Below, piece after piece: positions 11,577 to 28,547 of a stretch of DNA of 64,000 nucleotides. A program made the position numbers and the translations under genes. The stretch lies in the NCBI GenBank assembly GCA_038058635.1, contig JBBUAP010000004.1, positions 31,196 through 95,195 on the forward strand, written 5' to 3'. The notes under the pieces are model-generated. The model had not been told where the DNA came from. It worked only from the letters and a program-made list of their open reading frames with translations, and ran no database searches. How positions within the stretch are numbered: position 1 is the stretch's first letter; every line of letters begins with the position of its first letter. The stretch comes from Patescibacteria group bacterium (GTDB lineage Bacteria; Patescibacteriota; UBA1384; 2-12-FULL-50-11).

Positions 11577-11607
11577 AATCAGCGTTCTACACAGAAGGAC
11601 TAAAAAA

Positions 11608-11632
11608 GGAGGCCGGGCGATGCCCGGCCTCC
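11608..11632 (-). terminator. Rho-independent terminator for the minus-strand membrane-protein gene
   Basis: ggaggccggg-cgatg-cccggcctcc is a perfect 10 bp stem, flanked by A6 on the plus strand (U-tract on the minus strand). Confidence 0.7.
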
Positions 11633-11648
11633 TGGGCCGAATAGTGAA

Positions 11649-12836
11649 TCAGGTGATCTCGATCCTCGGACAGGCGAGTCCCTTGATGGCGAGGAGTAGC
11701 GACCAACAGAGCCTTAGGGCGCTCCAACAAAGCCAGAGGGCATCCTTAGCCGCTTGCGCAAGCCAGTTCGGTTTTGGTATTGGGGGTGGTTGACGTACAC
11801 CCATTGTCGCAGGAGTATCTGCCGTTTCTCCCAGCCCTGTAGCAACAGGTACTTCAGCCCGTTCCTCTTTCTGTCGAAAGTCGTCCGACCACCACCAAAG
11901 CACGAGAATGGCAAGGAGTCCAAAGAACACGGTCAAGAGTCCTTGGATAGGTACTGAACTCAAGTAGACGGTCGATGAAATGGCACCGCCGGCGCCAACA
12001 CCGAACAACGCCAGGTCCACTCCGTTGGGGCTCTCTATCTTTTTCTTGCTGTCGAAAAGGCGGAGAAAGCCGGCAAAAAGCATGAATGCTACCGCGCATG
12101 CAATCATGATTCCTAGCCAACCGGCGCCAACCACCATCACGGGGGTGAATGTTACCGAAACCCACCAGATGCCGTAGACCGCGGCGAGCACAAGAAGTAA
12201 TAGTCCGGGGGAGCGTGGAGTGTTGCCCCAGTACTTCATCCTCTTGTGTCTGTTCTTGATTTCAAAGTCCTCCATGGCATCAAGCCAGACCAAGAACGGG
12301 TTGGAACCGTTATAGAGGAAAAACCCTAGTGCGATGACCACATTTACCACTGCGCCAACCCCAACTAGCACCCCACCGAACAGTATGGCGCCGCCGATTG
12401 ACCAAGAGGCTTTGCATAAGGAACGGCCACCCAGATCCCAATCTCTCGACAACGCAGTTGCTTCTGCTATTCGATAAATCAGGCTGTTATGTCTGATTCC
12501 CAGGGCACCATTTTTGTAGCTGATGTCTTGCGAACACACCAGCATAGTCCCTAACATAAAGACACTACTGACCGCAACGATCAGTGCGGCAACTCCCCAC
12601 GAATCAGCCCAATGACTAGCTGGGACTATTGCCACCGCTTGCCATAAAGTGAATAGGTATACGCCGCTGGCAAGAACCAGAAGGGGCTTGCTTAGTGTTT
12701 TGACGAGCTTGGTTCGCGATAGCGCGCCCAAGACGATGGCGATGCCGGCCATGACGCCGAGCCAAAGCAGCGCATCTCCCAAGCTGGGGTAGCGCACGAT
12801 TGCGGATCTCCAAACATTTTCCATCTTCATCTCCAA
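11649..12836 (-). CDS. Hypothetical polytopic membrane protein (395 aa), inserted between rplK and the expected rplA position
   Basis: Long ORF with more than 8 hydrophobic segments and Trp-rich helices; no recognisable family; own terminator. Confidence 0.5.
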   Translation of the reverse strand: MEMKMENVWRSAIVRYPSLGDALLWLGVMAGIAIVLGALSRTKLVKTLSKPLLVLASGVYLFTLWQAVAIVPASHWADSWGVAALIVAVSSVFMLGTMLVCSQDISYKNGALGIRHNSLIYRIAEATALSRDWDLGGRSLCKASWSIGGAILFGGVLVGVGAVVNVVIALGFFLYNGSNPFLVWLDAMEDFEIKNRHKRMKYWGNTPRSPGLLLLVLAAVYGIWWVSVTFTPVMVVGAGWLGIMIACAVAFMLFAGFLRLFDSKKKIESPNGVDLALFGVGAGGAISSTVYLSSVPIQGLLTVFFGLLAILVLWWWSDDFRQKEERAEVPVATGLGETADTPATMGVRQPPPIPKPNWLAQAAKDALWLCWSALRLCWSLLLAIKGLACPRIEIT

Positions 12837-13080
12837 TTTGTTGAGCTTTTTAGGGCTGACGAACTATGGCAGAGTTTACCCGACGACCGCAGGAATGTCA
12901 ACAACTTTCGCCCCGTTTACGCTAGCACCACCTTTCCAGGTTACGGAAAAAGCCACCGCTTACGCAGTGGCCTTTCCCTTAACCTCCCAAATGCTATCAA
13001 CCTCCTGAAGAATTATGCGCGACCAATTATATGAGGCCGCGGGCGATTGCTATTTCGAAGTTTTGAAAATTTAACATAAA

Positions 13081-14178
13081 ATGGACGTGATGTCAATGAA
13101 AAAACACTGGTTTTTAGATTCTTCCGTCGATGAGATTTTGGCCATCTCGATGGTTGAGCCGCTCGGGCCGGTTTCTTGGCAGAAACTCTACCGAAACTTT
13201 GCGGGCTTGAAGGAGGTATTGGCGGCCGGTTCACACCTACTGATAAAAGCCGGTCTCAACCCTAACCAGGCCGAAGCACTGCGAGATCGTCCCAAGAATG
13301 TTGAAGCCGCCAAGCGCCTACTGGCAAGCAAGAAAACTGAGATTCTAACAATTGATTCACCCGACTATCCAGCGTTACTTAAAGAAATCAACGATCCGCC
13401 GTTATGGCTATTCTGCCGCGGCAATATAAAAGTTTTCAAAGAGACCTGCCTGACTGTCGTCGGCACCCGCAAGCCGTCCAGCTATGCCCTATTGGCCGCG
13501 GAGAAGCTTTTACCAGAAGAATTGGTATCACAGCTCTGTCTGGTTTCTGGGTTGGCCTACGGCGTCGACAAGAAGGTGCACCAACTGGCCTTGAAATACA
13601 ATGCGCCGACAATTGCTGTATTAGCTGGCGGACTCGATTCAATTTACCCAGCCGATCATCATCGATTAGCCGAACAGATCGTTGCGTCCGGTGGATTGCT
13701 AATCACCGAATACCCACCTTTGTCTCGACCGCGTCCGGCCAAATTTCCGATTCGTAATCGTATCATTGCCGGCTTATCAAAAGTAACCATCGTTCTGGAA
13801 GCTGCCATTCGCTCCGGCTCGCTAACCACCGCCAAAGCCGCCTTAGACTATAATCGGGAAGTTATGGCCGTGCCGAGCGAAATCACTCGACGCCACGCCG
13901 ACGGCACTAATTTTCTCATCAAGCAAGGCGCGACTTTACTCGATGATCCGAATCAACTCTACGAAATTCTTGGTCTCAAACCCAAGAGAGCTAGCGATAC
14001 GCTTGACGAACCAGCGCACAAGCTTCTACACTTACTAGCCAAGGAAGCGCTAGATGTTGACCGAATTGCCGTCTTGACCAAGCAGTCAATTCCAGAGATT
14101 CTATGGATACTGACTGAGTTGGAACTGGTAGGACAAATTTACCAGCCAAAACCAGGGTTCTACGAAGCAAAGAAGTAG
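13081..14178 (+). CDS. dprA: DNA processing protein DprA (Smf)
   Basis: Rossmann-like DprA core (VVGTRKPSSYALLAAEKLL...GLAYGVDKKVHQLAL...VLAGGLDSIYPADH...GSLTTAKAALDYNREVMAVP). Confidence 0.85.
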   Translation: MDVMSMKKHWFLDSSVDEILAISMVEPLGPVSWQKLYRNFAGLKEVLAAGSHLLIKAGLNPNQAEALRDRPKNVEAAKRLLASKKTEILTIDSPDYPALLKEINDPPLWLFCRGNIKVFKETCLTVVGTRKPSSYALLAAEKLLPEELVSQLCLVSGLAYGVDKKVHQLALKYNAPTIAVLAGGLDSIYPADHHRLAEQIVASGGLLITEYPPLSRPRPAKFPIRNRIIAGLSKVTIVLEAAIRSGSLTTAKAALDYNREVMAVPSEITRRHADGTNFLIKQGATLLDDPNQLYEILGLKPKRASDTLDEPAHKLLHLLAKEALDVDRIAVLTKQSIPEILWILTELELVGQIYQPKPGFYEAKK

Positions 14179-14200
14179 AGTTACGATTTACGATTTAAGA

Positions 14201-16441
14201 ATGAAGAAATTAGTTATTGTTGAGTCGCCCGCCAAAGCCAAGACAATTGGCCAGTATTTGGGGAGCGATTTTACTGTCCGGGCCTCGTACGGTCATGTTC
14301 GAGACTTACCGGTCAAGAAACTTGGCATCGATCCAGCCAAACATTTCGAAGTCGATTATGTGCCGATTGTTAGAGCCAAAAAGGTTTTGACGGAACTAAA
14401 AACCCTTCTCAAGACTTCTACCGAACTCTATCTCGCAACCGACTTTGATCGAGAAGGGGAAGCCATTGCTTGGCATCTGACGGAGCTGTTAAAGCCGAAA
14501 ATGCCGATTCACCGGATTACTTTCCACGAAATTACCAAGCCAGCCATTGAAAATGCCCTCAAGCACCCGCGCAGTATCGACGCCAAATTAGTTGACGCCC
14601 AGCAAGCCCGAAGAATTCTAGACCGCCTGGTTGGCTACAAACTTTCGCCATTTCTTTGGAAAAAAGTTTATCGCGGCTTGTCGGCTGGTCGCGTGCAATC
14701 CGTTGCCGTCCGCCTTATTGTTGAGCGCGAACGGGAGATTGCCGCTTTCAAATCCGTCGAATCTTGGACTCTTGACGCTATTTTAAAAAGTAAAGAAGGC
14801 GATTTTGCCGCTTATCTAGCCAAAGAGGGGACAACGGCCAAATTGGAATTGGCAGACGCGAAAGCGATTGATGGTCTCAAGAAAAAACTCGAAAAATCCA
14901 AACTCGAAGTCGAAAAAATTGAATCGAGCGATTCTCAACTCAAACCCCAAGCCCCGCTAATTACCTCAACCCTTCAGCAAGCCGCGGCGCGAGTTTTACA
15001 TTTTTCAGCCAAAAAAACGATGAAGATCGCCCAGGATTTGTACGAGGGCGTTGATGTCGAGGGCAAAGGCTCGGTCGCCTTAATCACCTATATGCGTACC
15101 GATTCTTTTCAGATGTCGGATCTGGCCAAGAAACAGGCCGAAGCTTTAATTGCTAAGAATTACGGTGCCAAATACCTGCCCGACCGACCAAATATGTTTT
15201 CCAAGAAAGTTCGGGGCGCCCAAGAAGCTCACGAAGCGATTCGCCCGACCGACTTTGCCATTCGACCCGACGAAATCAAAGGTCACCTAACAAAAGATCA
15301 TTACAACCTTTATAACCTGATCTGGTCGCAAGCTATGGGCTCGCTAATGGCACCAGCCCAAGTTAAAACCATCACCGCCTCCATTCACTCTGACGCCGGT
15401 ATACTAATCGGCCGCGGCCGCGAACTGGTCTTCGACGGCTTTATGAAGCTTGTGCCAGATGTCGAAGAAAACTTTGTTCAATTGCCGAAATTGGCCGAAA
15501 AAGATGCGGTCACGCTCAAGAAACTCGATTCCGTCCAGCATTTCACTGAACCACCAGCTCGTTACTCTGAAGCATCGCTCGTTCGCGAGTTAGAAAAGCG
15601 GGGGATCGGCCGACCGTCGACCTACGCTCCGATTATGTCGACAATTGTTGACCGCGGTTATGTCACTAAACTAGCCAGTCGTTTTACGCCAACAGAAGTG
15701 GCGGGAATTGTCGTCGATCTGTTAGTCGAGCATTTTCCCGACATCGTTGATTACAATTTTACCGCCGAGATGGAAGACAAGCTCGACGATATCGCCGAGG
15801 GCAAGAGAGAACTCGAACCGGTTTTAGAGGAGTTTTACACTCCATTTGCCAAGCTCTTGGCCGAAAAAGAAAAATCGGTTGATAAAAAAGCCATTGTCGA
15901 AGAAGCGACGGACAAAAAGTGTCCCGACTGTGGCAAGCCCGTCGTGCTGAAGCTTGGTCGTTACGGCAAGTTTTACTCCTGTAGCGGTTTTCCCGACTGT
16001 AAGTACACGGCGCCGTATTTGGACGATAAATTTACTAAAGACGAAGAGAAGGAGATCGCCGAGGAAGTCAAGGAAAATTGCGCCAAGTGCGGTGGCAAAA
16101 TGGCCATCAAACAAGGCCGGTTCGGGACATTTCTGGCTTGTACTAATTATCCGAAATGTAAATTCACCAAAGCAATTGTGATTGGTTCGAGCGTACCGTG
16201 CCCGAACTGCGGCAAGGAATTGATTCGCCGTAACACCCGCCGGGGCAAAGTTTTCTGGGGCTGTTCTGGTTACCCCGACTGTAAAACTGCCTACTGGGAC
16301 GAGCCGCTAGCTGAAAAGTGTCCAAAATGCAGCAATCTGATGGTCAACAAAAAATCCGGCCCGGCCTGCAGCCAGTGCGACTACAAAAAGGACAAGGAAG
16401 ACGAGCCAGCCGAAGTCAAGACAGAGGTCTCGGACAAATAG
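14201..16441 (+). CDS. topA: DNA topoisomerase I with C-terminal zinc-ribbon repeats
   Basis: Toprim start (MKKLVIVESPAKAKTI), active-site Tyr region, and four C4 zinc ribbons (CPDCGKP...CSGFPDC etc.) at the C-terminus. Confidence 0.95.
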   Translation: MKKLVIVESPAKAKTIGQYLGSDFTVRASYGHVRDLPVKKLGIDPAKHFEVDYVPIVRAKKVLTELKTLLKTSTELYLATDFDREGEAIAWHLTELLKPKMPIHRITFHEITKPAIENALKHPRSIDAKLVDAQQARRILDRLVGYKLSPFLWKKVYRGLSAGRVQSVAVRLIVEREREIAAFKSVESWTLDAILKSKEGDFAAYLAKEGTTAKLELADAKAIDGLKKKLEKSKLEVEKIESSDSQLKPQAPLITSTLQQAAARVLHFSAKKTMKIAQDLYEGVDVEGKGSVALITYMRTDSFQMSDLAKKQAEALIAKNYGAKYLPDRPNMFSKKVRGAQEAHEAIRPTDFAIRPDEIKGHLTKDHYNLYNLIWSQAMGSLMAPAQVKTITASIHSDAGILIGRGRELVFDGFMKLVPDVEENFVQLPKLAEKDAVTLKKLDSVQHFTEPPARYSEASLVRELEKRGIGRPSTYAPIMSTIVDRGYVTKLASRFTPTEVAGIVVDLLVEHFPDIVDYNFTAEMEDKLDDIAEGKRELEPVLEEFYTPFAKLLAEKEKSVDKKAIVEEATDKKCPDCGKPVVLKLGRYGKFYSCSGFPDCKYTAPYLDDKFTKDEEKEIAEEVKENCAKCGGKMAIKQGRFGTFLACTNYPKCKFTKAIVIGSSVPCPNCGKELIRRNTRRGKVFWGCSGYPDCKTAYWDEPLAEKCPKCSNLMVNKKSGPACSQCDYKKDKEDEPAEVKTEVSDK

Positions 16442-16461
16442 CCGCAACATGCTATTAATGA

Positions 16462-16902
16462 GTGGAAGCAATGATTAAGGTTGTTAATAAAGTTATGATG
16501 TTTATCTATCGCGTTCACGACGGCGAGAAGCAGTTTTATATGCTTAGTCGACCGAATATTCCAGCAAAGGATAGCGTTGTTCCGACAGGCCATATTGGTG
16601 ATGTCATTGCCGGAGAGAAGTCGATGGATGCAGCTGTCCGTGAGCTTGAAGAAGAGCTTGGTGCCGAGCCACTCTCAATCAGGGAGTTGGATTATAAAGT
16701 TGAAACACTTTTAAATATGGGAAGAATTCGCTCGCTTGAACAGGCTTTCATTATAGAGGTCGCAGATCAAGACTACCCATTTCTCGAATACGAGGGCGTT
16801 GATCATTCGTGGCAAAGTCTAAATGAATTAGAGAAGTTACTGACGTACGAATCGCAGTTTTCTGCAGTAACCGAAATTAGGTTGGCACTTGGCACTAAAT
16901 GA
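16462..16902 (+). CDS. NUDIX hydrolase
   Basis: Nudix box GEKSMDAAVRELEEELG. Confidence 0.7.
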   Translation: MEAMIKVVNKVMMFIYRVHDGEKQFYMLSRPNIPAKDSVVPTGHIGDVIAGEKSMDAAVRELEEELGAEPLSIRELDYKVETLLNMGRIRSLEQAFIIEVADQDYPFLEYEGVDHSWQSLNELEKLLTYESQFSAVTEIRLALGTK

Positions 16903-17531
16903 AAAACATTTTACCCCGCTCGGTCGAAGCTATGTCGAGTTTACTCTCGACTCTGCCGAGTATCGGGCCGAAAACCGCCAATCGCTTAACTTTCTTTTTA
17001 CTTGGTCGCCAAGAAGGGGAGTTAGATGAATTTGGTCAGGCATTTATTAACCTTAAAAAGAATCTTGTTACTTGCTCCAGGTGTTTCTTAATTGCCGAAA
17101 CCGATCCTTGTATTATCTGTCAGGACAAGCAACGAGTGCAGGACAAGTTGGTCGTTGTTGAAGAGCCGTTAGATGTCTTAGCGCTCGAAAAAGCTCATTT
17201 CGACGGGCTGTACCATGTTATCGGCGGCCAGATTTCGCCGATTAATAATGTTTCACCGGACGATCTAAAGATTAAAGAATTACTGTTGCGTCTGGAAACC
17301 GGCCAATTCAAGGAGGTAATCTTAGCGATGGATACCGTTCTGGAGGGTGAAGCAACCGCTCTATATATCGACGATCAAATAAGTCGAGGTCAAAAAGAGA
17401 ACAAGTTTAAGGGGGTTAGAGTGACCAGAATCGCCCGGGGTTTACCGGTTGGGGGAGACCTGGAATACGCCGACGAGCTGACACTAGCCCGAGCTCTTGA
17501 AGGTCGCCACTCATATTTGAGTAAAAATTAA
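16899..17531 (+). CDS. recR: Recombination protein RecR
   Basis: HhH (LPSIGPKTANRLTFFLL), C4 zinc finger (CSRCFLIAETDPCIIC) and Toprim domain. Confidence 0.9.
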   Translation: MKNILPRSVEAMSSLLSTLPSIGPKTANRLTFFLLGRQEGELDEFGQAFINLKKNLVTCSRCFLIAETDPCIICQDKQRVQDKLVVVEEPLDVLALEKAHFDGLYHVIGGQISPINNVSPDDLKIKELLLRLETGQFKEVILAMDTVLEGEATALYIDDQISRGQKENKFKGVRVTRIARGLPVGGDLEYADELTLARALEGRHSYLSKN

Positions 17532-17571
17532 AGTGTTGCGCTAACGATCAAAAGAAATTACAGTATTTAAA

Positions 17572-17850
17572 ATGTCTCAACCAAACACCATCGTTGACGA
17601 ACAGTACATCTGCGATGAATGCGGCTACACCAGCCCGGTCGCTAACGAACGCTGTCCGGATTGCGGATCAATGATGAGCGCCCTTCACGACGAAAAACCA
17701 AAAGCCAAGGTTCTTGACGGCGAAAGTGAAGAAGTACTAGCGGAAGAAGGCATGGACTCTGAAGCCCCAAAATCGCTTGAAACTCTCCAGAACGAAGAAC
17801 AAGAAGAATCCGACAAAGAGTACCAAAACGATACTTACGGAAACGAGTGA
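17572..17850 (+). CDS. Small zinc-ribbon protein with acidic tail (hypothetical)
   Basis: CDECGYTSPVANERCPDCG zinc ribbon followed by a Glu-rich C-terminus. Confidence 0.4.
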   Translation: MSQPNTIVDEQYICDECGYTSPVANERCPDCGSMMSALHDEKPKAKVLDGESEEVLAEEGMDSEAPKSLETLQNEEQEESDKEYQNDTYGNE

Positions 17851-17875
17851 GGCGAGACAATTGCGCTGGAACACT

Positions 17876-17925
17876 CTGACTCACCGTATATAGTATAGTG
17901 TATACGGTAAGTCAGGGTGAGTTAC
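17876..17925 (+). promoter_or_regulatory. Alternative (mutually exclusive) hairpins in the cysS 5' region
   Basis: ctgactcaccgtata/tatacggtaagtcag forms a 15-17 bp stem; the overlapping actcacc/ggtgagt offers an alternative pairing. Confidence 0.35.
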
Positions 17926-17997
17926 TAATGTGGTCGTCTACATAACCGATCAACTGCAGACTTTCATATACAGACTGAATAGGGTAAAAAGAGAGTA

Positions 17998-19332
17998 ATG
18001 CTTCAGATTTACAACACTCTTTCCGGTAAGAAGGAAAAGTTTAAGTCGATTAAGCCCAAGAAAGTTGGCATGTATGTTTGTGGTCCAACGGTTTACGACT
18101 ACGGTCATGTTGGTCACGCCCGAACCTATCTAACTTTCGACCTCCTCAACCGATTCTTAGAATATCTTGGCTATAAGGTTAATTATGTTCAAAACATCAC
18201 TGACGTTGGGAACCTAGTAGGGGACGCTGAAACAGGTACAGATAAGATCAAGAAGAAGGCCCAGGAGACTGGCGAGAGTATTGGCGATATTGTGCGACAT
18301 TATACCGAGGCACACCTGGAAGATCTGAAATCCCTCAATATTCTCGAACCAAGCAATTCACCTAAAGCATCAGAGCATATCGCTGATATAATAAAATATA
18401 TCAAGGAGCTAATTACGCTTGGTTACGCCTATGTTACCGACGAGGGTAATGTCTACTTCAGCGTTAATAAAAAACCAGATTACGGCAAATTAAGCCACCG
18501 CGGACTCGCCGAAATTCTTACCGGCACTAGGGTTGAATCAGCCAAAGATAAGCGAATTGTGGCCGATTTTGCCCTTTGGAAAGCCGCTCCAACCGGAGCG
18601 ACAGAAATGGTTTGGGACTCACCCTGGGGTAAGGGATTCCCTGGATGGCACATCGAGTGCTCGGTTATGAGCCAGAAATACTTGGGCGATACTTTTGATA
18701 TTCACGGTTCAGCCGTCGAGCATGTCTTCCCGCATCACGAGAACGAGATCGCTCAAGCCGAGGCCAAAACCGACCAACCTCTGGCTAATTACTGGATTCA
18801 CTCGGGGATGCTGACAGTAAATGGGCGCAAGATGAGCAAATCGCTCAGTAACACCGTTCGTGTAACCGACGCCCTCAAGGACTATTCTGCTAATGAAATC
18901 CGTTTGGCCTTTTTCCAAACACCATACCGCCAACCGTTTGATTACACCCGAGAATCGATGACTCAAGGGATAGCACTCCGCTCCAAACTCTTCAGCGCTT
19001 ACATGGTTGCGAAGGTCGGAGGAGACGAGGAGCAGTTTACAGGTATAATTGACGCAATATCCGACGACCTCGATACTCATCGAGCCCTAGACTTGTGGTC
19101 GGAGTACGCCAAGGATTTAAGCCGAGAGCAGTTCGAGAAACTGTTTGACATCTTTGGATTAAAGTTCGTGGCGATCGAAGATAATCCTCAAGCCAAGAAA
19201 CTCACTGACGAACGGCAAGAAGCCAGAACCAGCAGAGACTTCCTCACTGCCGACAACCGCCGGACAGAAATCGAGCAATTGGGTTACGAGGTAGAAGACA
19301 CCGATTCTGGCTCGCGCTACATTCCGAGATAG
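17998..19332 (+). CDS. cysS: Cysteinyl-tRNA synthetase
   Basis: HIGH motif (HVGHARTY), CysRS zinc-binding residues and KMSKS (RKMSKSLSN). Confidence 0.95.
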   Translation: MLQIYNTLSGKKEKFKSIKPKKVGMYVCGPTVYDYGHVGHARTYLTFDLLNRFLEYLGYKVNYVQNITDVGNLVGDAETGTDKIKKKAQETGESIGDIVRHYTEAHLEDLKSLNILEPSNSPKASEHIADIIKYIKELITLGYAYVTDEGNVYFSVNKKPDYGKLSHRGLAEILTGTRVESAKDKRIVADFALWKAAPTGATEMVWDSPWGKGFPGWHIECSVMSQKYLGDTFDIHGSAVEHVFPHHENEIAQAEAKTDQPLANYWIHSGMLTVNGRKMSKSLSNTVRVTDALKDYSANEIRLAFFQTPYRQPFDYTRESMTQGIALRSKLFSAYMVAKVGGDEEQFTGIIDAISDDLDTHRALDLWSEYAKDLSREQFEKLFDIFGLKFVAIEDNPQAKKLTDERQEARTSRDFLTADNRRTEIEQLGYEVEDTDSGSRYIPR

Positions 19333-20517: not shown

Positions 20518-21483
20518 ATGAAACTCCTGAAAGTTTTACTCGCGGCTTTGGCCGCGAGTCTCGTCATTCCGGTCTTTGCTCAGAACGAAGGCGAGTACCT
20601 GGATCTATCCAAGGACCAGTTCGTAGCTGGGGGTATGACCTCAAGCGGGATCGCCAATGAGCTCTTGCCGGCTTTTGCTGGCTATGCTCCGAAGGAGAAG
20701 GCCGACGAGGTGATCTCGTTTGCCTTCAACTACGATATCCCGAAGCTTCAACTAGCTTTTCGGGATTCGAAAGGGAAGGTGCACACTCGCACCGGCAAGC
20801 TCGCCAAAGGCGAGAAGCTCATTTCGACGGTCAACTCCAAAACTCGCCAAGGTGGCATTTGGTTGGTTGACGCGACTGTGCGTTGGGCGCAGCATTGCGG
20901 TAACCCGCTGCCGTCACCCTTCCGGGTGACGCTCTGGATCCCGGACTGGTCGCAAGACCGGATCGTCGTCCAGAGAGTGGAAATACTGAAACCATATGCT
21001 GTCACGGTCCGTGAAAATGTCATCGTTCAGCAACTGATTCCAACCCTCGGCAATGTGGAGCTCAACCTGCCGCCGGTGGAGCGCGGCCGGTACAAGCTGA
21101 CGGTCGTTGGAAACGAGGGCGCAGGACATCGCTGGGAGTATGTGAAGTCCTTCTGGGACAACTTCCTAGACTTCCTGCGCGTTGCCGCTTTCCCGATCGG
21201 ACAACTCGTTCGTCGGGCGGACAACCTATCCATCAACACCTCCTCGCAAGGAGGAGCGGGTGGCAATGGTTATGGTGCAGCGGCAGCGGCTGCTTCATCC
21301 TCGTCTTCGTCGTCCTCGACGTCGGCGACGCCAACCTCCGCAGCCGGTACTTCTGGCTCTGGCGGATCGTCTGCTGGCGGCGCTGCTGGCGGAGGCGGCA
21401 ACGACACGACAGGAACCGGTTCGGGCGGAATGCCTGAATTGGTTCTCTTCTTTGAGCGGACTTGGTTGCAAGTCGCAGCCTAG
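20518..21483 (+). CDS. Secreted hypothetical protein with Gly/Ser/Ala-rich C-terminal region
   Basis: Signal peptide MKLLKVLLAALAASLVIPVFAQ; low-complexity tail [31 protein letters not shown]... Confidence 0.5.
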   Translation: MKLLKVLLAALAASLVIPVFAQNEGEYLDLSKDQFVAGGMTSSGIANELLPAFAGYAPKEKADEVISFAFNYDIPKLQLAFRDSKGKVHTRTGKLAKGEKLISTVNSKTRQGGIWLVDATVRWAQHCGNPLPSPFRVTLWIPDWSQDRIVVQRVEILKPYAVTVRENVIVQQLIPTLGNVELNLPPVERGRYKLTVVGNEGAGHRWEYVKSFWDNFLDFLRVAAFPIGQLVRRADNLSINTSSQGGAGGNGYGAAAAAASSSSSSSSTSATPTSAAGTSGSGGSSAGGAAGGGGNDTTGTGSGGMPELVLFFERTWLQVAA

Positions 21484-21494
21484 TTCGCTATCCT

Positions 21495-21526
21495 GGCCAA
21501 ATCACACAGCGCTGTGTGATTTGGCC
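21495..21526. promoter_or_regulatory. Perfect 32 bp palindrome between the surface-protein genes
   Basis: GGCCAAATCACACAGCGCTGTGTGATTTGGCC has perfect dyad symmetry; it could be an operator or an intercistronic hairpin. Confidence 0.5.
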
Positions 21527-21594
21527 TCATCCCATGCCTAACTAATGGTCGATTGGTTGGGAATGTAGATGAATATAAGTAAAGGAGAATAATA

Positions 21595-22203
21595 ATGAAT
21601 AAAGTAATTATTTCAATTCTTGGAGTTATTGTCGCAACTGGCTTTGCCGGAACGGTGTTTGCCGCTTCGACAAGCTCAAGTTCTACAAGCTCAACCAGCT
21701 CTTCTGTCGTCGTTTCTAACGGTAACGGTGGTGCTGCCGCTTCGAGTGGTGCATCAGGCGCTGCTTCAGCTTCATCCGGTAACGGTGCCTCTAGTGCATC
21801 TGCTGCTAGCTCTTCGAGTTCAGCTGCGGTTGCCAATGGTGCCGCGGCTAGCTCCGGTTCTGCCGGCTCTAGCTCAAGTGGATCAAGCTCGGGTTCCAGC
21901 GCTTCTAGCGCCGCCAGCTCTTCAGCTTCTGCGGGTGGCAAAACAATTGTCGCCTCAGACAAGAAGGACTGTCCTAGCGCTTCAGCCAGTGCTGCCGCCG
22001 CTGCTTCTAGCTCTTCAGCTAGTTCAGCTGCTGCCGCCAAAGCTGCTTGCTCCACTACTGCCAAGGTTGTTACAACCAAGTCAGTAAAAAGCCTGCCTGC
22101 AACCGGTGCCGAAACGGCCCTGTTGCCAGGTGCTATGGCTATGTTTGCCCTTGCGGCTCGACGCTTCGCGTTGGCCAAAAAGGAAGCAAGTCTCTTGGCC
22201 TAA
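21595..22203 (+). CDS. LPXTG-anchored Ser/Ala-rich cell-surface protein (sortase substrate)
   Basis: Signal peptide MNKVIISILGVIVATGFAGTVFA; the C-terminus carries LPATG, a hydrophobic stretch (AETALLPGAMAMFALAA) and a basic tail (RRFALAKK). Confidence 0.6.
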   Translation: MNKVIISILGVIVATGFAGTVFAASTSSSSTSSTSSSVVVSNGNGGAAASSGASGAASASSGNGASSASAASSSSSAAVANGAAASSGSAGSSSSGSSSGSSASSAASSSASAGGKTIVASDKKDCPSASASAAAAASSSSASSAAAAKAACSTTAKVVTTKSVKSLPATGAETALLPGAMAMFALAARRFALAKKEASLLA

Positions 22204-22248: not shown

Positions 22249-22274
22249 GACCTCGCAAGAGGTCTTTTTCTTTT
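22249..22274 (+). terminator. Rho-independent terminator after the surface-protein operon
   Basis: gacctcgcaagaggtc followed by tttttctttt. Confidence 0.75.
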
Positions 22275-22314
22275 GACTCAAGATTTTTTGTTGGTTAACG
22301 GATACAATAGATAC

Positions 22315-23304
22315 ATGAGCAATCAGGAACGGAAAGCGGAGTTGGCCGAAACTTTACGGATTGACGAAAAGTCAGCGCGGATTAAACACATCGAGGCCGA
22401 AATGGCGACGCCGTCTTTTTGGCAGGAACACCAGCGAGCGGCCAAGCTAACCCAAGAGTTGAAGCATCTGCAGGACTTTGTGGCGGAATTTGAGCTAGCC
22501 GAGACAGATGCAGAGTTAGAAAAGCTGGAAACTGAGGCTTTTTTCTCCGGCGATCACGACGATTCTTCTTGTTTTGTCGGCATTCATTCCGGCTCGGGTG
22601 GCGTCGATGCCCAAGATTGGGCGGAGATGTTGGCTCGGATGTACACTCGCTACGGCGAAAGAGCCGACTACAAAGTCACCCTACTCGATCAAGCCGACGG
22701 TGAGGAGGCGGGAATCAAAAGCGCGACCCTACTAATCGAAGGGTTCAGAGCATATGGCAAGCTCAAAGCCGAGAACGGTGTTCATCGATTAGTCCGGATT
22801 AGTCCGTTTGATGCTGCCAAAGCCAGGCACACTTCGTTTGCCCTGGTCGAGGTCGTCCCCGAAGTGGCGGACGCCAGAGAGATTGAAATCAAGCCCGAGG
22901 AGATTCGAATAGATGTTTACCGTGCTGGTGGACACGGCGGTCAGGGCGTTAACACCACCGACTCGGCGGTCCGAATCACCCACTTACCCACCAAAATTGT
23001 TGTTACCTGTCAAAACGAGCGTAGCCAATTGCAAAATAAGGCTCAAGCGCTTAAGATTCTTCAGGGGAAGCTTCAGTTACTAGACGATGAGAAGAGACGC
23101 ATCGCCAACCAAAATCATAAGGGCGAGCCGGTTCTGGCCAGCTGGGGCAATCAGATTCGTTCATATATTCTTCAGCCATACCAGATGGTTAAGGATCTGC
23201 GGAGTGGCTACGAGACCTCCGGCGTTGACGATATTCTTGACGGACACTTAGAGAACATAATTGAAGCAAATATAAAATACTTCGCTAATTTAAAGAAAGG
23301 ATAA
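22315..23304 (+). CDS. prfB: Peptide chain release factor 2 (no programmed frameshift evident)
   Basis: SPF tripeptide (RISPFDAAK), GGQ motif (GGHGGQGVNTTDSAVRITHLPT); the ORF is continuous from the ATG at 22315 (TTG at 22273). Confidence 0.9.
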   Translation: MSNQERKAELAETLRIDEKSARIKHIEAEMATPSFWQEHQRAAKLTQELKHLQDFVAEFELAETDAELEKLETEAFFSGDHDDSSCFVGIHSGSGGVDAQDWAEMLARMYTRYGERADYKVTLLDQADGEEAGIKSATLLIEGFRAYGKLKAENGVHRLVRISPFDAAKARHTSFALVEVVPEVADAREIEIKPEEIRIDVYRAGGHGGQGVNTTDSAVRITHLPTKIVVTCQNERSQLQNKAQALKILQGKLQLLDDEKRRIANQNHKGEPVLASWGNQIRSYILQPYQMVKDLRSGYETSGVDDILDGHLENIIEANIKYFANLKKG

Positions 23305-23306
23305 AC

Positions 23307-23618
23307 ATGGAACTACCAAAATTTGGACAAATGAAGGATATGTATTCTCTGGCCAAGAAAGCCAAGCAGATGCAAAAGGAACTCAAAGACCTTGAGGTTG
23401 AGGGTAAGTCGGCTAACGGCGAAGTAACGGTTGTGGTCAGTGGAGAAATGAAAATCGTCTCAATTGATATTAGTGAGCATATGCTAGAGCCCAGCAAGAA
23501 AAGAGAGCTGGAAGATATCATCAAAGAAACAGTTGCGAAAGCTCTGGCAACTGCGCAAAGCGAGTCGGCGGCTCGAATGCAACCGCTACTTAAGGATATG
23601 AACTTCCCGGGAATGTAA
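23307..23618 (+). CDS. ybaB: Nucleoid-associated protein YbaB/EbfC
   Basis: 103 aa; MQKELKDLEVEGKSANGEVTVVVSGEMKIVSIDIS matches the YbaB family. Confidence 0.85.
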   Translation: MELPKFGQMKDMYSLAKKAKQMQKELKDLEVEGKSANGEVTVVVSGEMKIVSIDISEHMLEPSKKRELEDIIKETVAKALATAQSESAARMQPLLKDMNFPGM

Positions 23619-23644: not shown

Positions 23645-23977
23645 ATGTCAGACTCGAATGTAAAAATCGTAATTACTGTCCCAACAACACACGCCGAAGT
23701 TGTTAGGAAAGCAATGGGTGATGCCGGTGCAGGAAAGATCGGCAAGTACGAGCACTGCACTTTTTCGTCTAAGGGTATAGGTAGATTTTTTCCAACGGCA
23801 GCAGCTAGTCCTAAAATTGGTTCCGTCGGAAAAATAGAGGCAGTTGAAGAAGAAAGAATTGAGACGGTCTGCCCCCGAGACAGTCTAGACTCTGTTATTA
23901 AGGCAATTAAAAGTGCCCATCCTTACGAGGAACTGGCCTTAGATGTCTACCCGCTTTTAGAGATGGAGAAGTCATGA
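23645..23977 (+). CDS. Small PII-like protein, Nif3/YqfO C-terminal-domain-like (tentative)
   Basis: C-terminal ...AHPYEELALDVYPLL resembles the Nif3-family C-terminal motif; 110 aa. Confidence 0.35.
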   Translation: MSDSNVKIVITVPTTHAEVVRKAMGDAGAGKIGKYEHCTFSSKGIGRFFPTAAASPKIGSVGKIEAVEEERIETVCPRDSLDSVIKAIKSAHPYEELALDVYPLLEMEKS

Positions 23978-24537
23978 TCCTCGTTGTTGGTTTAGGGAAT
24001 CCTGGGCAGAAATACGATAAGAACAGGCACAATCTGGGATTTTTAACGATCGGCGCGTTGGCCAAGAGATCGGAGCTTCAATTAAACGAAGACAAGTATA
24101 TACCAGCCGAGGCGGCCAAAAGTGACGACTTTCAGTTGATTGCCCCCCTAACATATGTCAACGAATCTGGTACTGCCGTGGCGAAGGTTCAGAAAAAGCA
24201 CAATATTGACCTCAGCGACATCTGGGTTGTCCACGATGACACCGAGATTCCGTTTGGAGAAGTTCGGGTCAAGCGGGGAGGCACTAGCGGTGGCCACAAC
24301 GGTATCAAATCTATTGACCAAGCGATCGGTCCGGATTATTGGCGGATCCGGGTTGGTGTTGGGCGTCCAGAAAATACGAACATCGACTTGGCCGACTATG
24401 TTTTGAGCGATTTTACGCCAGAAGAAGCGGGAGTGCTGCCGTTAATTATTGACCGAGTTGCCGATTTCCTGGTACAATCTCTCAAAGACAAGCAATTACA
24501 AGTAACAACATTCAATGGCACGACCAAAAACAATTAA
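23974..24537 (+). CDS. pth: Peptidyl-tRNA hydrolase
   Basis: MILVVGLGNPGQKYDKNRHNLGF...VVHDD...GGHNGIKS is the canonical Pth sequence. Confidence 0.9.
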   Translation: MILVVGLGNPGQKYDKNRHNLGFLTIGALAKRSELQLNEDKYIPAEAAKSDDFQLIAPLTYVNESGTAVAKVQKKHNIDLSDIWVVHDDTEIPFGEVRVKRGGTSGGHNGIKSIDQAIGPDYWRIRVGVGRPENTNIDLADYVLSDFTPEEAGVLPLIIDRVADFLVQSLKDKQLQVTTFNGTTKNN

Positions 24538-25465
24538 TCAACCAGTCGAGGAAGAGAAGCTAGCGGAGGCCGAGGCAGAAATTATGCCTCATCATTCAGC
24601 CGAGGCCAGTTTTGATGAGTCAGCTGGCAATGTCGACGAAGAAGCAGAAAAGGAGACAGCGGTTGAAGAAGGGGCTGATCTAGATCAAGCCATACCGGCC
24701 GAAGTAGCGGCCATTCATGTCGGCAACGAATCGGCCAGTGCGTTAAACAAGGCCGAGCCATCAAAACTGGAACGGAAAAAAGAGGCCAAGGCCGAGCGTC
24801 AGGCCGCTAAAAGCGAGAAGATCGCCGCTACCAAAGAAGTTGAGAGCAAGAGCCGCCGCTCCAAGAAATACCTCGCCGCCCGCGCCAAAGTCGAACCAGG
24901 GAAACTTTACCAACTCGCCGAAGCTCTGACTTTAGTTAAAGAACTATCAATGTCCAAATTCGACGGTTCTGTTGAAATTCACCTTCGTTTAAATAAGAAA
25001 AAAGCTAAGGGTTCAACCGAATCGAGCCGCGGCGTTGTCCACTTGCCTCACGGTACTGGCAAGGAAAAGAAAGTCGTCGTCTTGGACGAAAAGATGATCG
25101 ACGAGATCGCCAAGACCAAAAAAATGGATTTTGATATCTGTATCGCTTCACCGGAGTTGATGCCGAAAGTGGCGAAAATCGCCAAGATCTTGGGTCCAAA
25201 AGGTAAAATGCCCGACCCTAAATCCGGCACCGTTACTAACGATCCGAAAAAAGTGATGGAGGAAATTAAGAGCGGCAAGACTGAATATCGTGTTGACGCC
25301 AGCAACATCGTTCACCAAATCATCGGCAAGGTTTCCTGGGAAGATGCTAAACTGGCCGATAACGCTAAAGTCGTCATGGCAATCTATCCGAAATCCCGCC
25401 TCAACAGTGCTTTTATCACTGCTTCAATCGCCCCATCAATCCCGCTCGATCTAAGCAAGTTCTAA
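24515..25465 (+). CDS. rplA: 50S ribosomal protein L1 with ~110 aa N-terminal acidic/lysine-rich extension
   Basis: The canonical L1 core starts near KKYLAARAKVEPGKLYQLAEALTLVKELSMSKFDGSVEIHLRL; the start overlaps the pth 3' end. Confidence 0.9.
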   Translation: MARPKTINQPVEEEKLAEAEAEIMPHHSAEASFDESAGNVDEEAEKETAVEEGADLDQAIPAEVAAIHVGNESASALNKAEPSKLERKKEAKAERQAAKSEKIAATKEVESKSRRSKKYLAARAKVEPGKLYQLAEALTLVKELSMSKFDGSVEIHLRLNKKKAKGSTESSRGVVHLPHGTGKEKKVVVLDEKMIDEIAKTKKMDFDICIASPELMPKVAKIAKILGPKGKMPDPKSGTVTNDPKKVMEEIKSGKTEYRVDASNIVHQIIGKVSWEDAKLADNAKVVMAIYPKSRLNSAFITASIAPSIPLDLSKF

Positions 25466-25468: not shown

Positions 25469-26002
25469 ATGGTACAAAGATTGGTCGCGCCAATCGGCTT
25501 TCTCATCGGCCTAGTAGCGCTAGCTTTTGTCATGCAAACGCTGGGAAACTCATCGCCAACCAATAAACCCCTAGTGGGTCCGGAGCTATTAAAACAATTT
25601 GAGATTGTCGAGATAGCCCCTCCGGCAGCAACTGTCACCGACGAAGACAGTAAAAAAGTTGATTTATCAACGCTTTTTTTCAAACCAACTCTAGTGACTT
25701 TCTGGAGCGTTAACTGCGGCGAATGCGATACCGGTTTGCCAGTGCTAGATAATTTTGCCAAAAGTCAGAGTCAAGTCGCGGTGATATTGATTGATACCAA
25801 AGACGAACCAAAAGACGCCGAGGAAAAACTTACCTCACTTAATGTGACGACTGGTACTTATTACGATACCGACGGCTCGACCTTCCAGAGCTGGGAGGCA
25901 ACGATGCCTGCGTCCTACTTTGTCATTAACGGCAAAATTAAATACTATTTTCCCGGCCGAGTTAGCCAGGAACACCTCGACGCCTTGTTGACGGTTCAAT
26001 AA
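25469..26002 (+). CDS. TlpA/ResA-like thiol-disulfide oxidoreductase (secreted thioredoxin-fold)
   Basis: N-terminal TM/signal segment; the redox motif is WSVNCGECD. Confidence 0.7.
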   Translation: MVQRLVAPIGFLIGLVALAFVMQTLGNSSPTNKPLVGPELLKQFEIVEIAPPAATVTDEDSKKVDLSTLFFKPTLVTFWSVNCGECDTGLPVLDNFAKSQSQVAVILIDTKDEPKDAEEKLTSLNVTTGTYYDTDGSTFQSWEATMPASYFVINGKIKYYFPGRVSQEHLDALLTVQ

Positions 26003-26067: not shown

Positions 26068-26412
26068 TCAGTTTGCACAGATTTCTATGTTATCCCTCCA
26101 GTTTGCAATCCGGTAACTACCAGCCCTTTCGAAGGTTACACCGAGCAAATCTGAAAGAAGATCAGACAGCTCGTACTGCCACTTATTAGCAGAATCGCGA
26201 GTCATCTGAAAGTGAATGGCGAAGCTTCCAAATGTTCCGTTCACTTCGATATGCACCTCGTGGATGTTATTCCCGAGTTCGGAGGGCTTGTTGAACCGAT
26301 TGAATTGTTCGCGTAGTTCGTAAAGTGCAGAGAGCCAGCCCTTCGGCTGTATGTCGACAAGGACCGGATTTTCGTACAGTGCGATCGTCGCGTCTAATGC
26401 CGTAACTCGCAA
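26068..26412 (-). CDS. Hypothetical protein (114 aa), no recognisable family
   Basis: Clean ORF on the opposite strand to the flanking ribosomal genes, with its own upstream region. Confidence 0.4.
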   Translation of the reverse strand: MRVTALDATIALYENPVLVDIQPKGWLSALYELREQFNRFNKPSELGNNIHEVHIEVNGTFGSFAIHFQMTRDSANKWQYELSDLLSDLLGVTFERAGSYRIANWRDNIEICAN

Positions 26413-26565: not shown

Positions 26566-26982
26566 TCAGAATCTGATTGTAACCCCTCCCTTTATTGTCA
26601 GAATTACACCAAACGTCGGATCGTCCATGACAAAAAAACTTGGATACGTACCGAAGTCGTTGGTACGCCCACGGTAGAACGGGATTTCGAGAGATTGGGT
26701 GCCTACCTCGCACAGCTTCTGAACGCAAGTTAAGTGAGCTTTAGCTGCGAGAGCGCTCACAACCTTTTCGACGTCCTCACTATCACGACAGATGATTGTC
26801 AGCATGTCATCTTCCGGTAATCCGAAGTCGATGGCCATAATCTCCCGTTGAAGATCTTGGTCGAAACTCACAGTGTTGTGAAGATAGTGAACGAGCAGTA
26901 TAAGATCGGCTTGCATCTTTAAATACTTCCGTGAAATCTCTCCGACTTTCGCTGCCCGATTGAGGAGCATCTTTACCATCAT
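26566..26982 (-). CDS. Hypothetical protein (138 aa), no recognisable family
   Basis: Clean ORF; paired with 26068..26412 as a two-gene minus-strand insertion between rplA and rplJ. Confidence 0.4.
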   Translation of the reverse strand: MMVKMLLNRAAKVGEISRKYLKMQADLILLVHYLHNTVSFDQDLQREIMAIDFGLPEDDMLTIICRDSEDVEKVVSALAAKAHLTCVQKLCEVGTQSLEIPFYRGRTNDFGTYPSFFVMDDPTFGVILTIKGGVTIRF

Positions 26983-27077: not shown

Positions 27078-27106
27078 TTGACGTATTTTTTAAATAGTGG
27101 CATAAT
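27078..27106 (+). promoter_or_regulatory. Sigma70-like promoter for rplJ-rplL (TTGACG-17-CATAAT)
   Basis: ttgacg tattttttaaatagtgg cataat, about 175 nt upstream of rplJ. Confidence 0.55.
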
Positions 27107-27281
27107 CATTAAGTCCAAAGACAGTAGGTGACCTCTGCCAGCAGGCGGAACAAGTCGTAAGTCCTACCGAGGCAAGAACCAAAAATGCCGGTCTTTGACG
27201 CGGCTATTTCATTTTCAAATGAAATTTGTCACTTGAAACATAAATCAGCCTTTAGTTTTGGAACTTTAGACTTAAACAATA
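27107..27281 (+). ncRNA. rplJ 5' UTR, candidate ribosomal protein L10 leader (autoregulatory) element
   Basis: A ~175 nt untranslated leader directly upstream of rplJ, where the L10(L12)4-binding leader is found in many bacteria; the structure was not verified here. Confidence 0.3.
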
Positions 27282-28091
27282 ATGCCTATCTTAAGAGCCC
27301 AAAAAGAAGACCTAGTCGCCAAACTAACAGAGGAGTTGCAAAACTCTCGTATTGCTTTGGTCTTTGCTTACACCGCCCTAAATATGAAGGCCAACGACAC
27401 CCTGCGCACTCGCGCTTTTGAGGGCGGCGCCAAAGTAAAAATGATCTCCAACACTTTGCTCGCCATCATTTTGAAAAACATTGGCAAAGAATTGGAGATT
27501 CCGCAAAAGACCTTGGCTTTGGCCTACGGTTTTGAGGACGAAGTAATCGCCGCCAAAACCTTAGTGGAATTTGCCAAAGAAACTGAAACGCTGGAAGTAT
27601 TGGGTGGCTGGGTTGATGGCAATTTCTTTGACGCCTCGCAAATCAAAACTCTGGCAACTTTGCCAAACAAAGAAACCCTGCAAGCACAATTGGTTGGTCG
27701 CCTAAACGGTTTGATTGGTGGTTTGGCATATTCTTTGAACTTCCCAATTCAGAAGCTGGCCTTTGTGATTGAGGCAGTCAAGTCGGCTAGCGGTGAGCCA
27801 GTTGCGGCTGAAGCGCCAGAAACATCAGAGAAACCAGCTGACGAGCCAGTTACAGAAGCTGCTGAAGAATCCTTCGACCCCGCTGGAAACAGTGAGATTG
27901 TCGAATCTGCTCAGGATAAACCAACTGCAGAAACGGAACTAGTCGACACTCCTACCGAGCCTGCCGAAGAGAAGGCAGAGGAGTCAGACTCGTCCGACGA
28001 CCAGTCCGTCGAAGCTTCAGCGGAGGAAGAGGTAGTGGCGAAGTCGGAAGAAGTCCAAGAAGAAAGCAAAGAAGAAATAAAAGAAAGTTAA
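27282..28091 (+). CDS. rplJ: 50S ribosomal protein L10 with long acidic C-terminal extension
   Basis: MPILRAQKEDLVAKLTEELQNSRIALVFAYTALNMKANDTLRTRA is the L10 core; about 100 aa of Glu/Ser-rich tail. Confidence 0.9.
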   Translation: MPILRAQKEDLVAKLTEELQNSRIALVFAYTALNMKANDTLRTRAFEGGAKVKMISNTLLAIILKNIGKELEIPQKTLALAYGFEDEVIAAKTLVEFAKETETLEVLGGWVDGNFFDASQIKTLATLPNKETLQAQLVGRLNGLIGGLAYSLNFPIQKLAFVIEAVKSASGEPVAAEAPETSEKPADEPVTEAAEESFDPAGNSEIVESAQDKPTAETELVDTPTEPAEEKAEESDSSDDQSVEASAEEEVVAKSEEVQEESKEEIKES

Positions 28092-28103
28092 GAAAGGAAA
28101 TAA

Positions 28104-28484
28104 ATGGCAGAAAAAGTTGAAAAATTATTAGAACAGATTTCCGAGCTATCCGTAATGGAACTCTCGGAATTGGTTAAGGGTGTGGAAGAGAAGTTTGGTG
28201 TGAGCGCGATGCCAGTTATGGCTGCAGGTGCTGCTCCAGCCGCCGGCGGAGCCGCCGAAGCCGCCGAAGAGAAGTCGGAATACAATGTTGTCCTGACCGC
28301 CTCTGGCGAGCAAAAGATCGCCGTCATTAAGGCCGTCCGTGAAATCAAACAAGACTTAGGTCTTAAAGAAGCTAAGGATCTCGTTGACGCCGCTCCAAAA
28401 GAACTCGGTATCATGAAGAAGGCCGACGCTGAAGAAGCCAAGAAAAAGCTTGAAGAAGCCGGCGCAACGGTTGAACTAAAATAA
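28104..28484 (+). CDS. rplL: 50S ribosomal protein L7/L12
   Basis: N-terminal dimerisation helix, Ala/Gly-rich hinge, CTD ...[32 protein letters not shown]... Confidence 0.95.
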
Positions 28485-28508
28485 ATTAGTCTCTAGTTTA
28501 GAAACGCA

Positions 28509-28534
28509 GAAACCGCCTTTCCGGGCGGTTTTTG
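28509..28534 (+). terminator. Rho-independent terminator after rplL
   Basis: aaaccgcc-tttcc-gggcggttttt. Confidence 0.6.
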
Positions 28535-28547
28535 CTACACTAAACTA

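Follow-up and report, generated by a model that had tools for sequence, protein, structure and literature searches.

In E. coli, as in bacteria generally, the genes for the ribosomal proteins L11, L1, L10 and L7/L12 (rplK, rplA, rplJ and rplL) belong to the cluster secE-nusG-rplK-rplA-rplJ-rplL-rpoBC, and rplK-rplA is among the most stable gene pairs in Bacteria and most Archaea. In a stretch of 64,000 nucleotides (nt) from contig JBBUAP010000004.1 of a Patescibacteria group bacterium, called the window throughout, this cluster is broken in three places. Gene calls combined a listing of open reading frames (ORFs) with Pfam and NCBIfam scans of the window proteins, and the resulting map agrees almost gene for gene with an original prediction made from the sequence, so that the three breaks are real and lie where they had been placed. 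On the plus strand, rplK (11151-11576; Pfam N- and C-terminal domains of L11) directly follows secE and nusG in a contiguous or overlapping run (10298-11576), and since it begins 2 nt after the nusG stop it has no leader. The next gene of the cluster, rplA (24515-25465, plus strand, 316 aa; Pfam PF00687, TIGR01169), lies 12,938 nt and 14 ORFs further on and overlaps the gene for peptidyl-tRNA hydrolase, pth (23974-24537, plus strand; Pfam PF01195), the last 23 nt of which are inside rplA. As predicted, rplA carries an N-terminal extension of about 110 aa. A redoxin/TlpA-like gene (tlpA; 25469-26002, plus strand; Pfam/NCBIfam) starts 3 nt after rplA and is followed by two orphan ORFs of 114 and 138 aa on the minus strand (26068-26412 and 26566-26982), neither with a family match. 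Only then come rplJ (27282-28091, plus strand; Pfam, NF000955 on residues 7-168) and rplL (28104-28484, plus strand; Pfam), with a hairpin resembling an intrinsic terminator behind them (CCGCC/GGCGG plus TTTTT, 28513-28533, plus strand; read by eye and unlisted by the automatic scan). The usual place of rpoB is taken by a heliorhodopsin gene (28548-29330, plus strand; Pfam PF18761, 309 bits), again in agreement with the original prediction. Three of the four adjacencies that define the canonical cluster are absent from the window, namely rplK to rplA, rplA to rplJ-rplL (found among the relatives in L008 only) and rplL to rpoB-rpoC, while the L10 operon is intact.

The age of this arrangement was read from relatives. 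Species-representative genomes were scanned with the window L1 protein and the gene context of the matches was determined by tblastn. Four metagenome-assembled genomes (MAGs) of the candidate phyla radiation (CPR), which come from separate studies and are labelled Berkelbacteria, Saccharibacteria or Patescibacteria group, encode L1 proteins that are 86-92% identical to that of the window over all 316 residues, and they share the order topA-recR-Zn-ribbon ORF-cysS-…-prfB-ybaB-pth-rplA-tlpA-rplJ-rplL over the stretch covered by each contig. Hundreds of L1 proteins of the window type, about 300 aa long, are on record in the protein database. Gene context was further read for homologues at 58%, 51% and 46% identity and for two L1 proteins whose length is close to canonical, one of 229 aa and one of 249 aa; three homologues of the latter were treated likewise. 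Every one of these relatives has the order (dprA-)topA-recR-x-cysS-…-prfB-ybaB-pth-rplA-[0-4 variable genes]-rplJ-rplL, followed, sometimes past a few other genes, by genes for TGT and a DUF8128 ATPase and in none by rpoB; the relatives whose L1 is without a long extension also keep pth next to rplA. In two relatives (JACRAP010000023 and SRR12113407_121508) rplK and rplA are found on one contig, 10-13 kb apart, and rplU-secE-nusG-rplK is followed directly by dprA in the former and by an M3 peptidase gene and then dprA in the latter.

A metagenome scan with an L1 alignment yielded 80 loci, which were classed by tblastn. The pth-rplA order was found in 20 of them (core L1 identity to the window 40-96%) and nusG-rplK-rplA(-rplJ-rplL) in 48 (35-44%), one locus (47%) has another gene 5' of rplA, and 11 loci were too short to class, so that no identity applies to them. 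Above 44% core identity all loci with enough upstream sequence are of the pth-rplA class except the one with a different upstream gene, and in none of them does rplK adjoin rplA; between 40 and 44% the two classes overlap. Because the order recurs in all these relatives and the canonical order reappears just outside them, the separation of rplK from rplA and the missing rpoBC are a derived trait common to a deep clade. This clade consists of tiny uncultured CPR/Patescibacteria of the Berkelbacteria type. By the same comparison the split gene order is old and inherited, and is neither an assembly error nor a recent insertion. A literature search found no description of the rplK/rplA break in CPR bacteria. 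The original prediction had treated the breaks as separate insertions that could each be dated; the rplK/rplA split and the lack of rpoBC after rplL are instead common to every sampled clade member, and only small fillers are recent.

Separating rplK from rplA had also been thought to remove the classic autoregulation by L1. An Rfam search for an L1 leader gave nothing at the gathering threshold in the window and nothing at E <= 10 around rplA and rplK, and a positive control with the E. coli rplK leader likewise went without a match; Rfam 15 thus seems to be without a usable L1-leader model, which makes this negative uninformative. A descriptor was therefore built from the E. coli site (L010), a Clostridiales rplK leader (L005) and the Methanococcus vannielii site, and it recovers all three. 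It matches GUGG-GA-[hairpin]-G……-CCAC directly 5' of rplA in L011, and a relaxed descriptor together with a regular expression located the same predicted operator in L009, L012, L018 and L019. In 23S rRNA its counterpart is the GGUGG-GA-GGC…CCACC junction of the L1 stalk, which it mimics; helix 1 of the element is invariant, and four of the five pairs of helix 2 covary with changes on both sides. A covariance model trained on three sites placed three unseen sites as its top three matches in 306 kb searched on both strands, and a model from six sequences found 11 further sites in 340 kb of metagenome loci, all on the plus strand and all just 5' of rplA. The predicted operator is present in 15 clade members with the same split and in the canonically ordered L049, a possible outgroup, where it lies between rplK and rplA. 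In 9 of 13 loci it ends 10-12 nt before the rplA ATG, beside the Shine-Dalgarno sequence, and AAAGGA or AAGGAG precedes rplA in the more distant relatives. Since clade members with the same split carry the operator, the split itself would not have removed L1 autoregulation. An operator before rplA was probably already present in the ancestor of the clade, in which case it stayed with rplA when rplK and rplA parted.

The window itself is different. Its best covariance score between 9600 and 28700, with filters off, is 8.5 bits, compared with 34-40 for the training sites and 17-26 for the new ones, and the descriptors for an L1-binding structure (a 6-12 bp stem with a G·A pair and an unpaired A bulge) gave no positionally conserved match near rplA or rplK. 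The usual places for such a site are taken up, as only 2 nt precede rplK and a 23-nt overlap precedes rplA. The earlier claim that rplK has no L1-responsive leader is borne out in this respect, whereas the operator appears to have been lost later than the split, in the subclade of the window. The loss goes together with the overlap of pth and rplA. In all 13 loci of the overlap type (the window, L001-L004, L007, L008, L020-L023, L025 and L028) the rplA ATG lies 8-38 nt inside pth and no operator was found. All 13 also share a sigma-70-like motif, TTGACn-N17/18-(TG)nTAnAAT, which ends 36 nt 5' of the ATG and in which the hexamers are fixed and the spacer varies; in the window it reads TTGACC-18-TGgTACAAT (24449-24478, plus strand, consensus scan) and lies inside pth. 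Compared with L001 and L003, the last ~90 nt of pth show 74-80% nucleotide conservation, against about 50% in the rest of the gene, and in seven genomes 5 of 15 and 5 of 11 third-codon positions are invariant at the 3' end of pth, against 0-2 of 15 elsewhere. The description of rplA as fused into the pth transcript is right about the overlap, but it has to be set beside this conserved motif, which may serve as a promoter of rplA itself. In L011 pth (1472-2731) is called as a protein of 419 aa, about twice the normal length, suggesting a fusion with, or read-through into, another domain.

The third unit of the region starts between the orphan ORFs and rplJ. A promoter-like site (TTGACG-17-CATAAT with a TG; 27078-27106, plus strand, consensus scan) is followed by a full-length match to the L10 leader, Rfam RF00557, the predicted L10(L12)n autoregulatory element (27097-27239, plus strand; 40.1 bits, E = 3.8e-5). 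This match comes from a local Rfam search and lies just below the gathering score of the family, 44 bits; in the window none of the Rfam families attains its gathering score. The homologous leaders of L001, L002 and L003 score 46.5, 46.2 and 45.5 bits and are above 44. In an alignment of five genomes the AAGACAGUAGG…CCUACCGAGG core is invariant and encloses a hairpin whose changes are compensatory, and in the window the AAGACAG…CCGAGG core flanks the variable hairpin in the 5' untranslated region of rplJ (ATG at 27282). Core variants followed by a hairpin and a U-run were seen 5' of rplJ in nearly all distant relatives examined by eye (L007-L019); in L011 only the 3' half of the core lies within the stretch read. 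As leaders that bind L10(L12)4 are widespread among bacteria (PMC3616713), rplJ appears to have kept an ordinary L10 leader, and the earlier statement that it had acquired its own promoter and long leader does not hold for what appears to be a standard RF00557 element. A likeness to the core of the L10 leader in the 5' region of rplA, CAAAGACAAG…GUCGAGG, was judged to be chance and is not kept in L007 or L008.

We consider it likely that an ancient rearrangement broke the supercluster into separate units in the Berkelbacteria-type clade and that the operator was lost later in the subclade of the window. The ancestral secE-nusG-rplK-rplA-rplJ-rplL-rpoBC supercluster would have been rearranged long ago into three units. 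The first would be rplU-secE-nusG-rplK, tightly packed, with a leaderless rplK and an end hairpin shared with the convergent gene. The second would be prfB-ybaB-(ORF)-pth-rplA(-tlpA), at the end of a conserved co-directional block of housekeeping genes, and the third an ordinary L10 autoregulatory operon of promoter, L10 leader, rplJ, rplL and terminator, with rpoBC placed elsewhere in the genome. In the ancestral state of the clade, L1 would have regulated its own synthesis through the rRNA-mimicking operator (GUGG-GA-[hairpin]-G…-CCAC) 5' of rplA, next to the ribosome-binding site. In the subclade of the window a deletion would then have removed the spacer between pth and rplA together with the operator, and L1 would since probably be expressed from the promoter inside pth, by read-through or coupling from prfB-ybaB-pth, or by both. 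With rplK leaderless and no operator at rplA, neither L11 nor L1 would apparently be under L1 feedback there. A further-reaching proposal is that L1 (and L11) escaped autogenous feedback when rplA was captured by an RF2-YbaB-Pth-L1 operon and the operator was lost, and that the extension of L1 now acts in regulation or assembly instead, for example by masking the RNA-binding face of the same molecule; we regard this as unlikely. If true, it would offer a natural bacterium that balances the supply of its L1-stalk protein without the L1 operator found in many bacterial phyla.

Several points weigh against this history. The promoters, terminators and coupling are proposed at the level of consensus sequences. 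The putative promoter of rplA lies inside a coding sequence, and conservation of the C-terminus of Pth (…IDx…LVQSLKDKQ) could explain part of the nucleotide conservation seen there. Seven clade loci (L017, L030, L037, L039, L040, L045 and L052) are without the L1 operator, and at least six of them are, by regular expression, also without the promoter motif. The operator model is specific to the clade (GUGG…CCAC) and misses the E. coli site, which leaves room for a divergent site in the window. A tblastn search with E. coli RpoB and RpoC found no match in the 64-kb window or in loci L001-L019. Finally, an exact-protein look-up of the 138-aa ORF and of the membrane protein encoded 3' of rplK left the joins specific to the window unconfirmed in an independent assembly; the start-codon choice of gene callers is the probable reason for these failed look-ups, and the start of the membrane-protein query was also probably a wrong guess.

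By its own account, the original prediction would have fallen if chimerism or mis-assembly at 11.6, 24.5, 26.0 or 28.5 kb hid a cluster that is canonical in the real genome. The window does come from a metagenome-assembled genome, and no other genome shares its membrane gene or its two orphan ORFs, whose junctions the look-ups above did not confirm independently. However, the same order recurs across all four junction regions in many independent assemblies (NCBI, ENA, JGI, Logan), in every relative locus that is sufficiently long, and it resumes on either side of the inserts specific to the window (rplK…dprA; tlpA…L10 leader-rplJ). An L1 protein identical to that of the window is recorded on 6 contigs, the longest of 423 kb, and GC content is uniform across the joins, so that mis-assembly is scarcely credible. 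We also consider it highly unlikely that the three breaks arose recently and independently by insertion, for example of mobile elements, while close relatives kept an intact cluster, although recent changes are evident in the intergenic slots. The spacer between rplA and rplJ is a hot spot that holds differing genes: the redoxin/tlpA gene is confined to the subclade of the window (present in L001-L004 and L007; absent in L008, L009, L011, L012 and L017-L019), and other relatives have tmk (thymidylate kinase), UDG, a trypsin-like protease plus an HNH gene, a Y1 transposase or nothing in its place. The two orphan ORFs occur only in this genome and are absent in L001-L004 and L020, even where L1 is 92-96% identical (L004, L020). 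Likewise genome-specific is the membrane gene, which is absent 3' of rplK in both relatives that reach rplK (nothing in L014, an M3 peptidase gene in L015), and the position of heliorhodopsin varies, the gene lying 3.4 kb 3' of rplL in L002 and being absent in L003 and L004. At these places the membrane gene, both orphan ORFs and heliorhodopsin are recent fillers of variable intergenic slots. The 10-13 kb block from dprA to pth, by contrast, consists of core housekeeping genes and is syntenic down to about 46% L1 identity, and among the clade members sampled rplL is nowhere followed by rpoB, nor rplA preceded by rplK.

Two further alternatives concern rplA itself. Were the 110-aa extension an artefact of ORF calling, L1 would start near residue 111 and there would be neither overlap nor coupling with pth. 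The canonical L1 fold does begin at about residue 111 in an alignment with E. coli L1, the Pfam match is confined to the C-terminal part, the ATG at 24515 is not preceded by a Shine-Dalgarno sequence, and it has been cautioned that predictions based on the first start codon may miss true starts (Tsurumaki et al., 2022; bioRxiv 10.1101/2022.01.07.475337). The extension (24515-24844, plus strand), which is first acidic and then basic, is nevertheless alignable in relatives down to 46% identity and keeps the motif EEGADxD…PAEvxAI…NExA over that range; its dN/dS is 0.04-0.13, with synonymous sites near saturation, and every indel is in frame. No further ATG lies in frame between 24515 and the core, the predicted operator and Shine-Dalgarno sequence of relatives stand immediately before the ATG of the extended ORF, and a recognisable Shine-Dalgarno sequence is missing from most window genes anyway, their 5' regions being A/T-rich. 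The low dN/dS and the in-frame indels argue that the extension is translated and under purifying selection, and the chance that it is an artefact is very slight. It is also not new, since the type was described for Berkelbacteria, Microgenomates and Saccharibacteria, whose uL1 has an N-terminal addition of 40-130 aa and lacks internal regions of 20-40 aa (Tsurumaki et al., 2022; bioRxiv 10.1101/2022.01.07.475337). The window protein corresponds to this type, with its 110-aa extension and a canonical uL1 core (24845-25465, plus strand; Pfam PF00687, TIGR01169, alignment) that has internal deletions of ~18 and 8 aa relative to E. coli L1; relatives labelled Berkelbacteria likewise have a 110-aa N-terminal region and lack about 26 aa internally. 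Nothing essential differs, and what is added here is the purifying selection and the conserved motif. The other alternative, which we hold to be possible but rather doubtful, is that L1 still regulates its own synthesis in the window, through a divergent site in the 5' coding region of rplA or by L1 acting on another mRNA. L1 sites are small and hard to trace computationally (PMC3616713), the covariance model of the clade misses the E. coli site, and nucleotide conservation is unusually high over the first ~60 nt of rplA. With general and relaxed descriptors, on the other hand, neither the window nor its close relatives show a site of conserved position near rplA or rplK, and the one candidate in the 5' coding region (GGCC-GA-GGC…GCC…GGCC, ~24563-24610) was rejected, having too long a 3' loop and not being kept in L001-L004. 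An inherited split followed by loss of the operator in the subclade of the window remains the reading that we prefer.

The genes around these elements complete the map. The first unit is preceded by ftsW (8639-9757) and by a promoter-like site (TTGACC-17-TACACT, 9839-9867, plus strand; a consensus match only). Next comes rplU (L21; 9889-10305, plus strand; Pfam PF00829, TIGR00061), which has a Lys-rich C-terminal tail, lies directly 5' of secE and is without a neighbouring rpmA (L27). The start of secE (10298-10495, plus strand; TIGR00964, 52.8 bits) overlaps the rplU stop, and nusG (10495-11148, plus strand; Pfam NusG and KOW) has an acidic N-terminal extension of ~45 aa, its NusG domain beginning at residue 48. 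The order rplU-secE-nusG-rplK is also found in L014 and L015. Between rplK and the convergent membrane gene (11649-12836, minus strand; 395 aa with about eight hydrophobic or transmembrane segments, from the ORF call and hydrophobicity) a hairpin scan placed a 12-bp GC-rich hairpin with a T-run (11607-11633, minus strand). The original prediction had given the membrane gene a terminator of its own; the hairpin is there, and with its T-run on the minus strand it would formally serve as a terminator of that convergent gene. The co-directional conserved block that follows (13081-22203, plus strand; Pfam, signal peptides, LPATG, synteny) comprises dprA, topA, NUDIX, recR, the Zn-ribbon ORF, cysS and three ORFs for secreted or sortase-anchored proteins. 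These last three (19563-22203) have signal peptides and no family match, and their GC content is raised (0.565 against about 0.48); the third encodes a Ser/Ala-rich protein that ends in an LPATG sortase motif, a transmembrane segment and a basic tail. Counterparts are present in relatives and are highly divergent. A terminator-like hairpin with a T-run (22249-22269, plus strand, hairpin scan) closes the surface-protein genes before prfB.

The gene for RF2, prfB (22273-23304, plus strand; TIGR00020, 429.9 bits against a cutoff of 370), likely starts at the in-frame ATG at 22315, and the listed TTG start at 22273 probably lies in upstream non-coding sequence. From ATG 22315 RF2 is apparently encoded in a single frame, and no programmed frameshift site of the CUU UGA type was noticed in the stretch read (22273-22320). 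In the relative JACRAP010000023 (L008, 7784-8767) prfB alone is inverted to the minus strand inside the otherwise co-directional prfB-ybaB-pth-rplA array. Between prfB and pth lie ybaB/ebfC (23307-23618, plus strand; Pfam PF02575) and, from the ORF call, a 110-aa ORF. The orphan minus-strand ORFs have no match in Pfam, NCBIfam or PADLOC and no relatives among viral contigs; behind each of them the minus strand has, as read by eye, a GC-rich hairpin with an A-run beside it that reads as a T-run in their orientation. In L002 the heliorhodopsin gene (16085-16864) is followed by two short tblastn matches to its last ~30 residues (17492-17581 and 18274-18372), which may be repeated C-terminal fragments. 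The L10 protein has a C-terminal tail of ~100 aa (residues ~170-269) that is highly acidic and of low complexity and bears a superficial likeness to the acidic tails of archaeal/eukaryotic P0; the tail varies among relatives, total L10 length being 247 aa in L007 and 218 aa in L008, and only 172-176 aa at greater distance. Low-complexity tails are found on several translation and transcription proteins of the window's subclade, namely L1, L10, L21 and NusG. Upstream of the region (window 1-8144) lies a type-IV-pilus cluster with T2SSE, T2SSF, prepilin peptidase and N-methyl pilins. Downstream, the TGT gene and paired DUF8128/TrwB-like ATPase genes of the relatives probably correspond, as regards the ATPases, to ORFs of 813 and 1027 aa in the window (34521-40042). 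The modules on both flanks of the rearranged region are conserved and typical of CPR (window 1-8144 and 34521-40042; L014, L015, L008, L009, L011 and L012). No tRNA genes were found in the window.

A clade that has split rplK from rplA and still carries an operator with rplA is a natural experiment, which indicates that it is the linkage of operator and rplA, and not that of rplK and rplA, that matters. Loss of the predicted operator together with the pth overlap in one subclade would moreover provide two contrasting regulatory states within one lineage that can be compared experimentally. The pth-rplA junction can serve as a simple synteny marker for the clade, and in annotation and in quality checks of MAGs the split should not be taken for a mis-assembly.

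Compared with the cluster of E. coli and bacteria in general, the window shares the contiguous secE-nusG-rplK and the rplJ-rplL pair behind an L10-type leader with a terminator-like hairpin after it. It differs in that rplK and rplA are 12.9 kb apart in different units and rplK is leaderless, that three genes lie between rplA and rplJ, that rpoBC is away and that rplU stands directly 5' of secE. Separation of rplL from rpoB also occurs in cyanobacteria. Calling the cluster universally conserved was too strong, as splits between rplKA and rplJL are known from Bradyrhizobium and Actinomyces (bioRxiv 10.1101/2025.04.14.645983) and rplK is unlinked from rplA in Methanococcus (PMC3616713). The bacterial examples are broken at rplA/rplJ or rplL/rpoB, as here, but keep rplK and rplA together, and the rplK/rplA break is the unusual one among the three. 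The L1 operon of M. vannielii (L1-L10-L12) has in common with this clade the unlinked rplK, rplA just 5' of rplJ-rplL in L008, L009 and L012, and an L1 operator at the rplA ribosome-binding site, predicted in L009, L012 and other relatives. The clade differs in being bacterial, in tying rplA to pth and in keeping an L10 leader at rplJ, so that L1 would probably not control L10 and L12; in the window the operator is absent, and minus-strand ORFs with hairpins, a separate promoter-like site and the L10 leader stand between rplA and rplJ. The window region most resembles this archaeal arrangement, but with rplA drawn into the prfB-pth unit and the operator since lost. L1-binding mRNA sites directly before rplA are known from Cyanobacteria, Actinobacteria and Chloroflexi (Fu et al., 2013; PMC3616713); they match the predicted operators of the relatives in position and in their stem, GA bulge, hairpin and asymmetric 3' loop, whereas rplK is still immediately 5' of rplA in those phyla and pth takes its place here. 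The L10 leader agrees with RF00557 over its full length, in the AAGACAG…CCGAGG core and in the downstream hairpin and U-run, and differs in its score of 40.1 bits, below 44. The region is no new kind of system, since the L10 leader, the type of L1 operator and the L1 extension are all known, but a lineage-specific variant of known parts.

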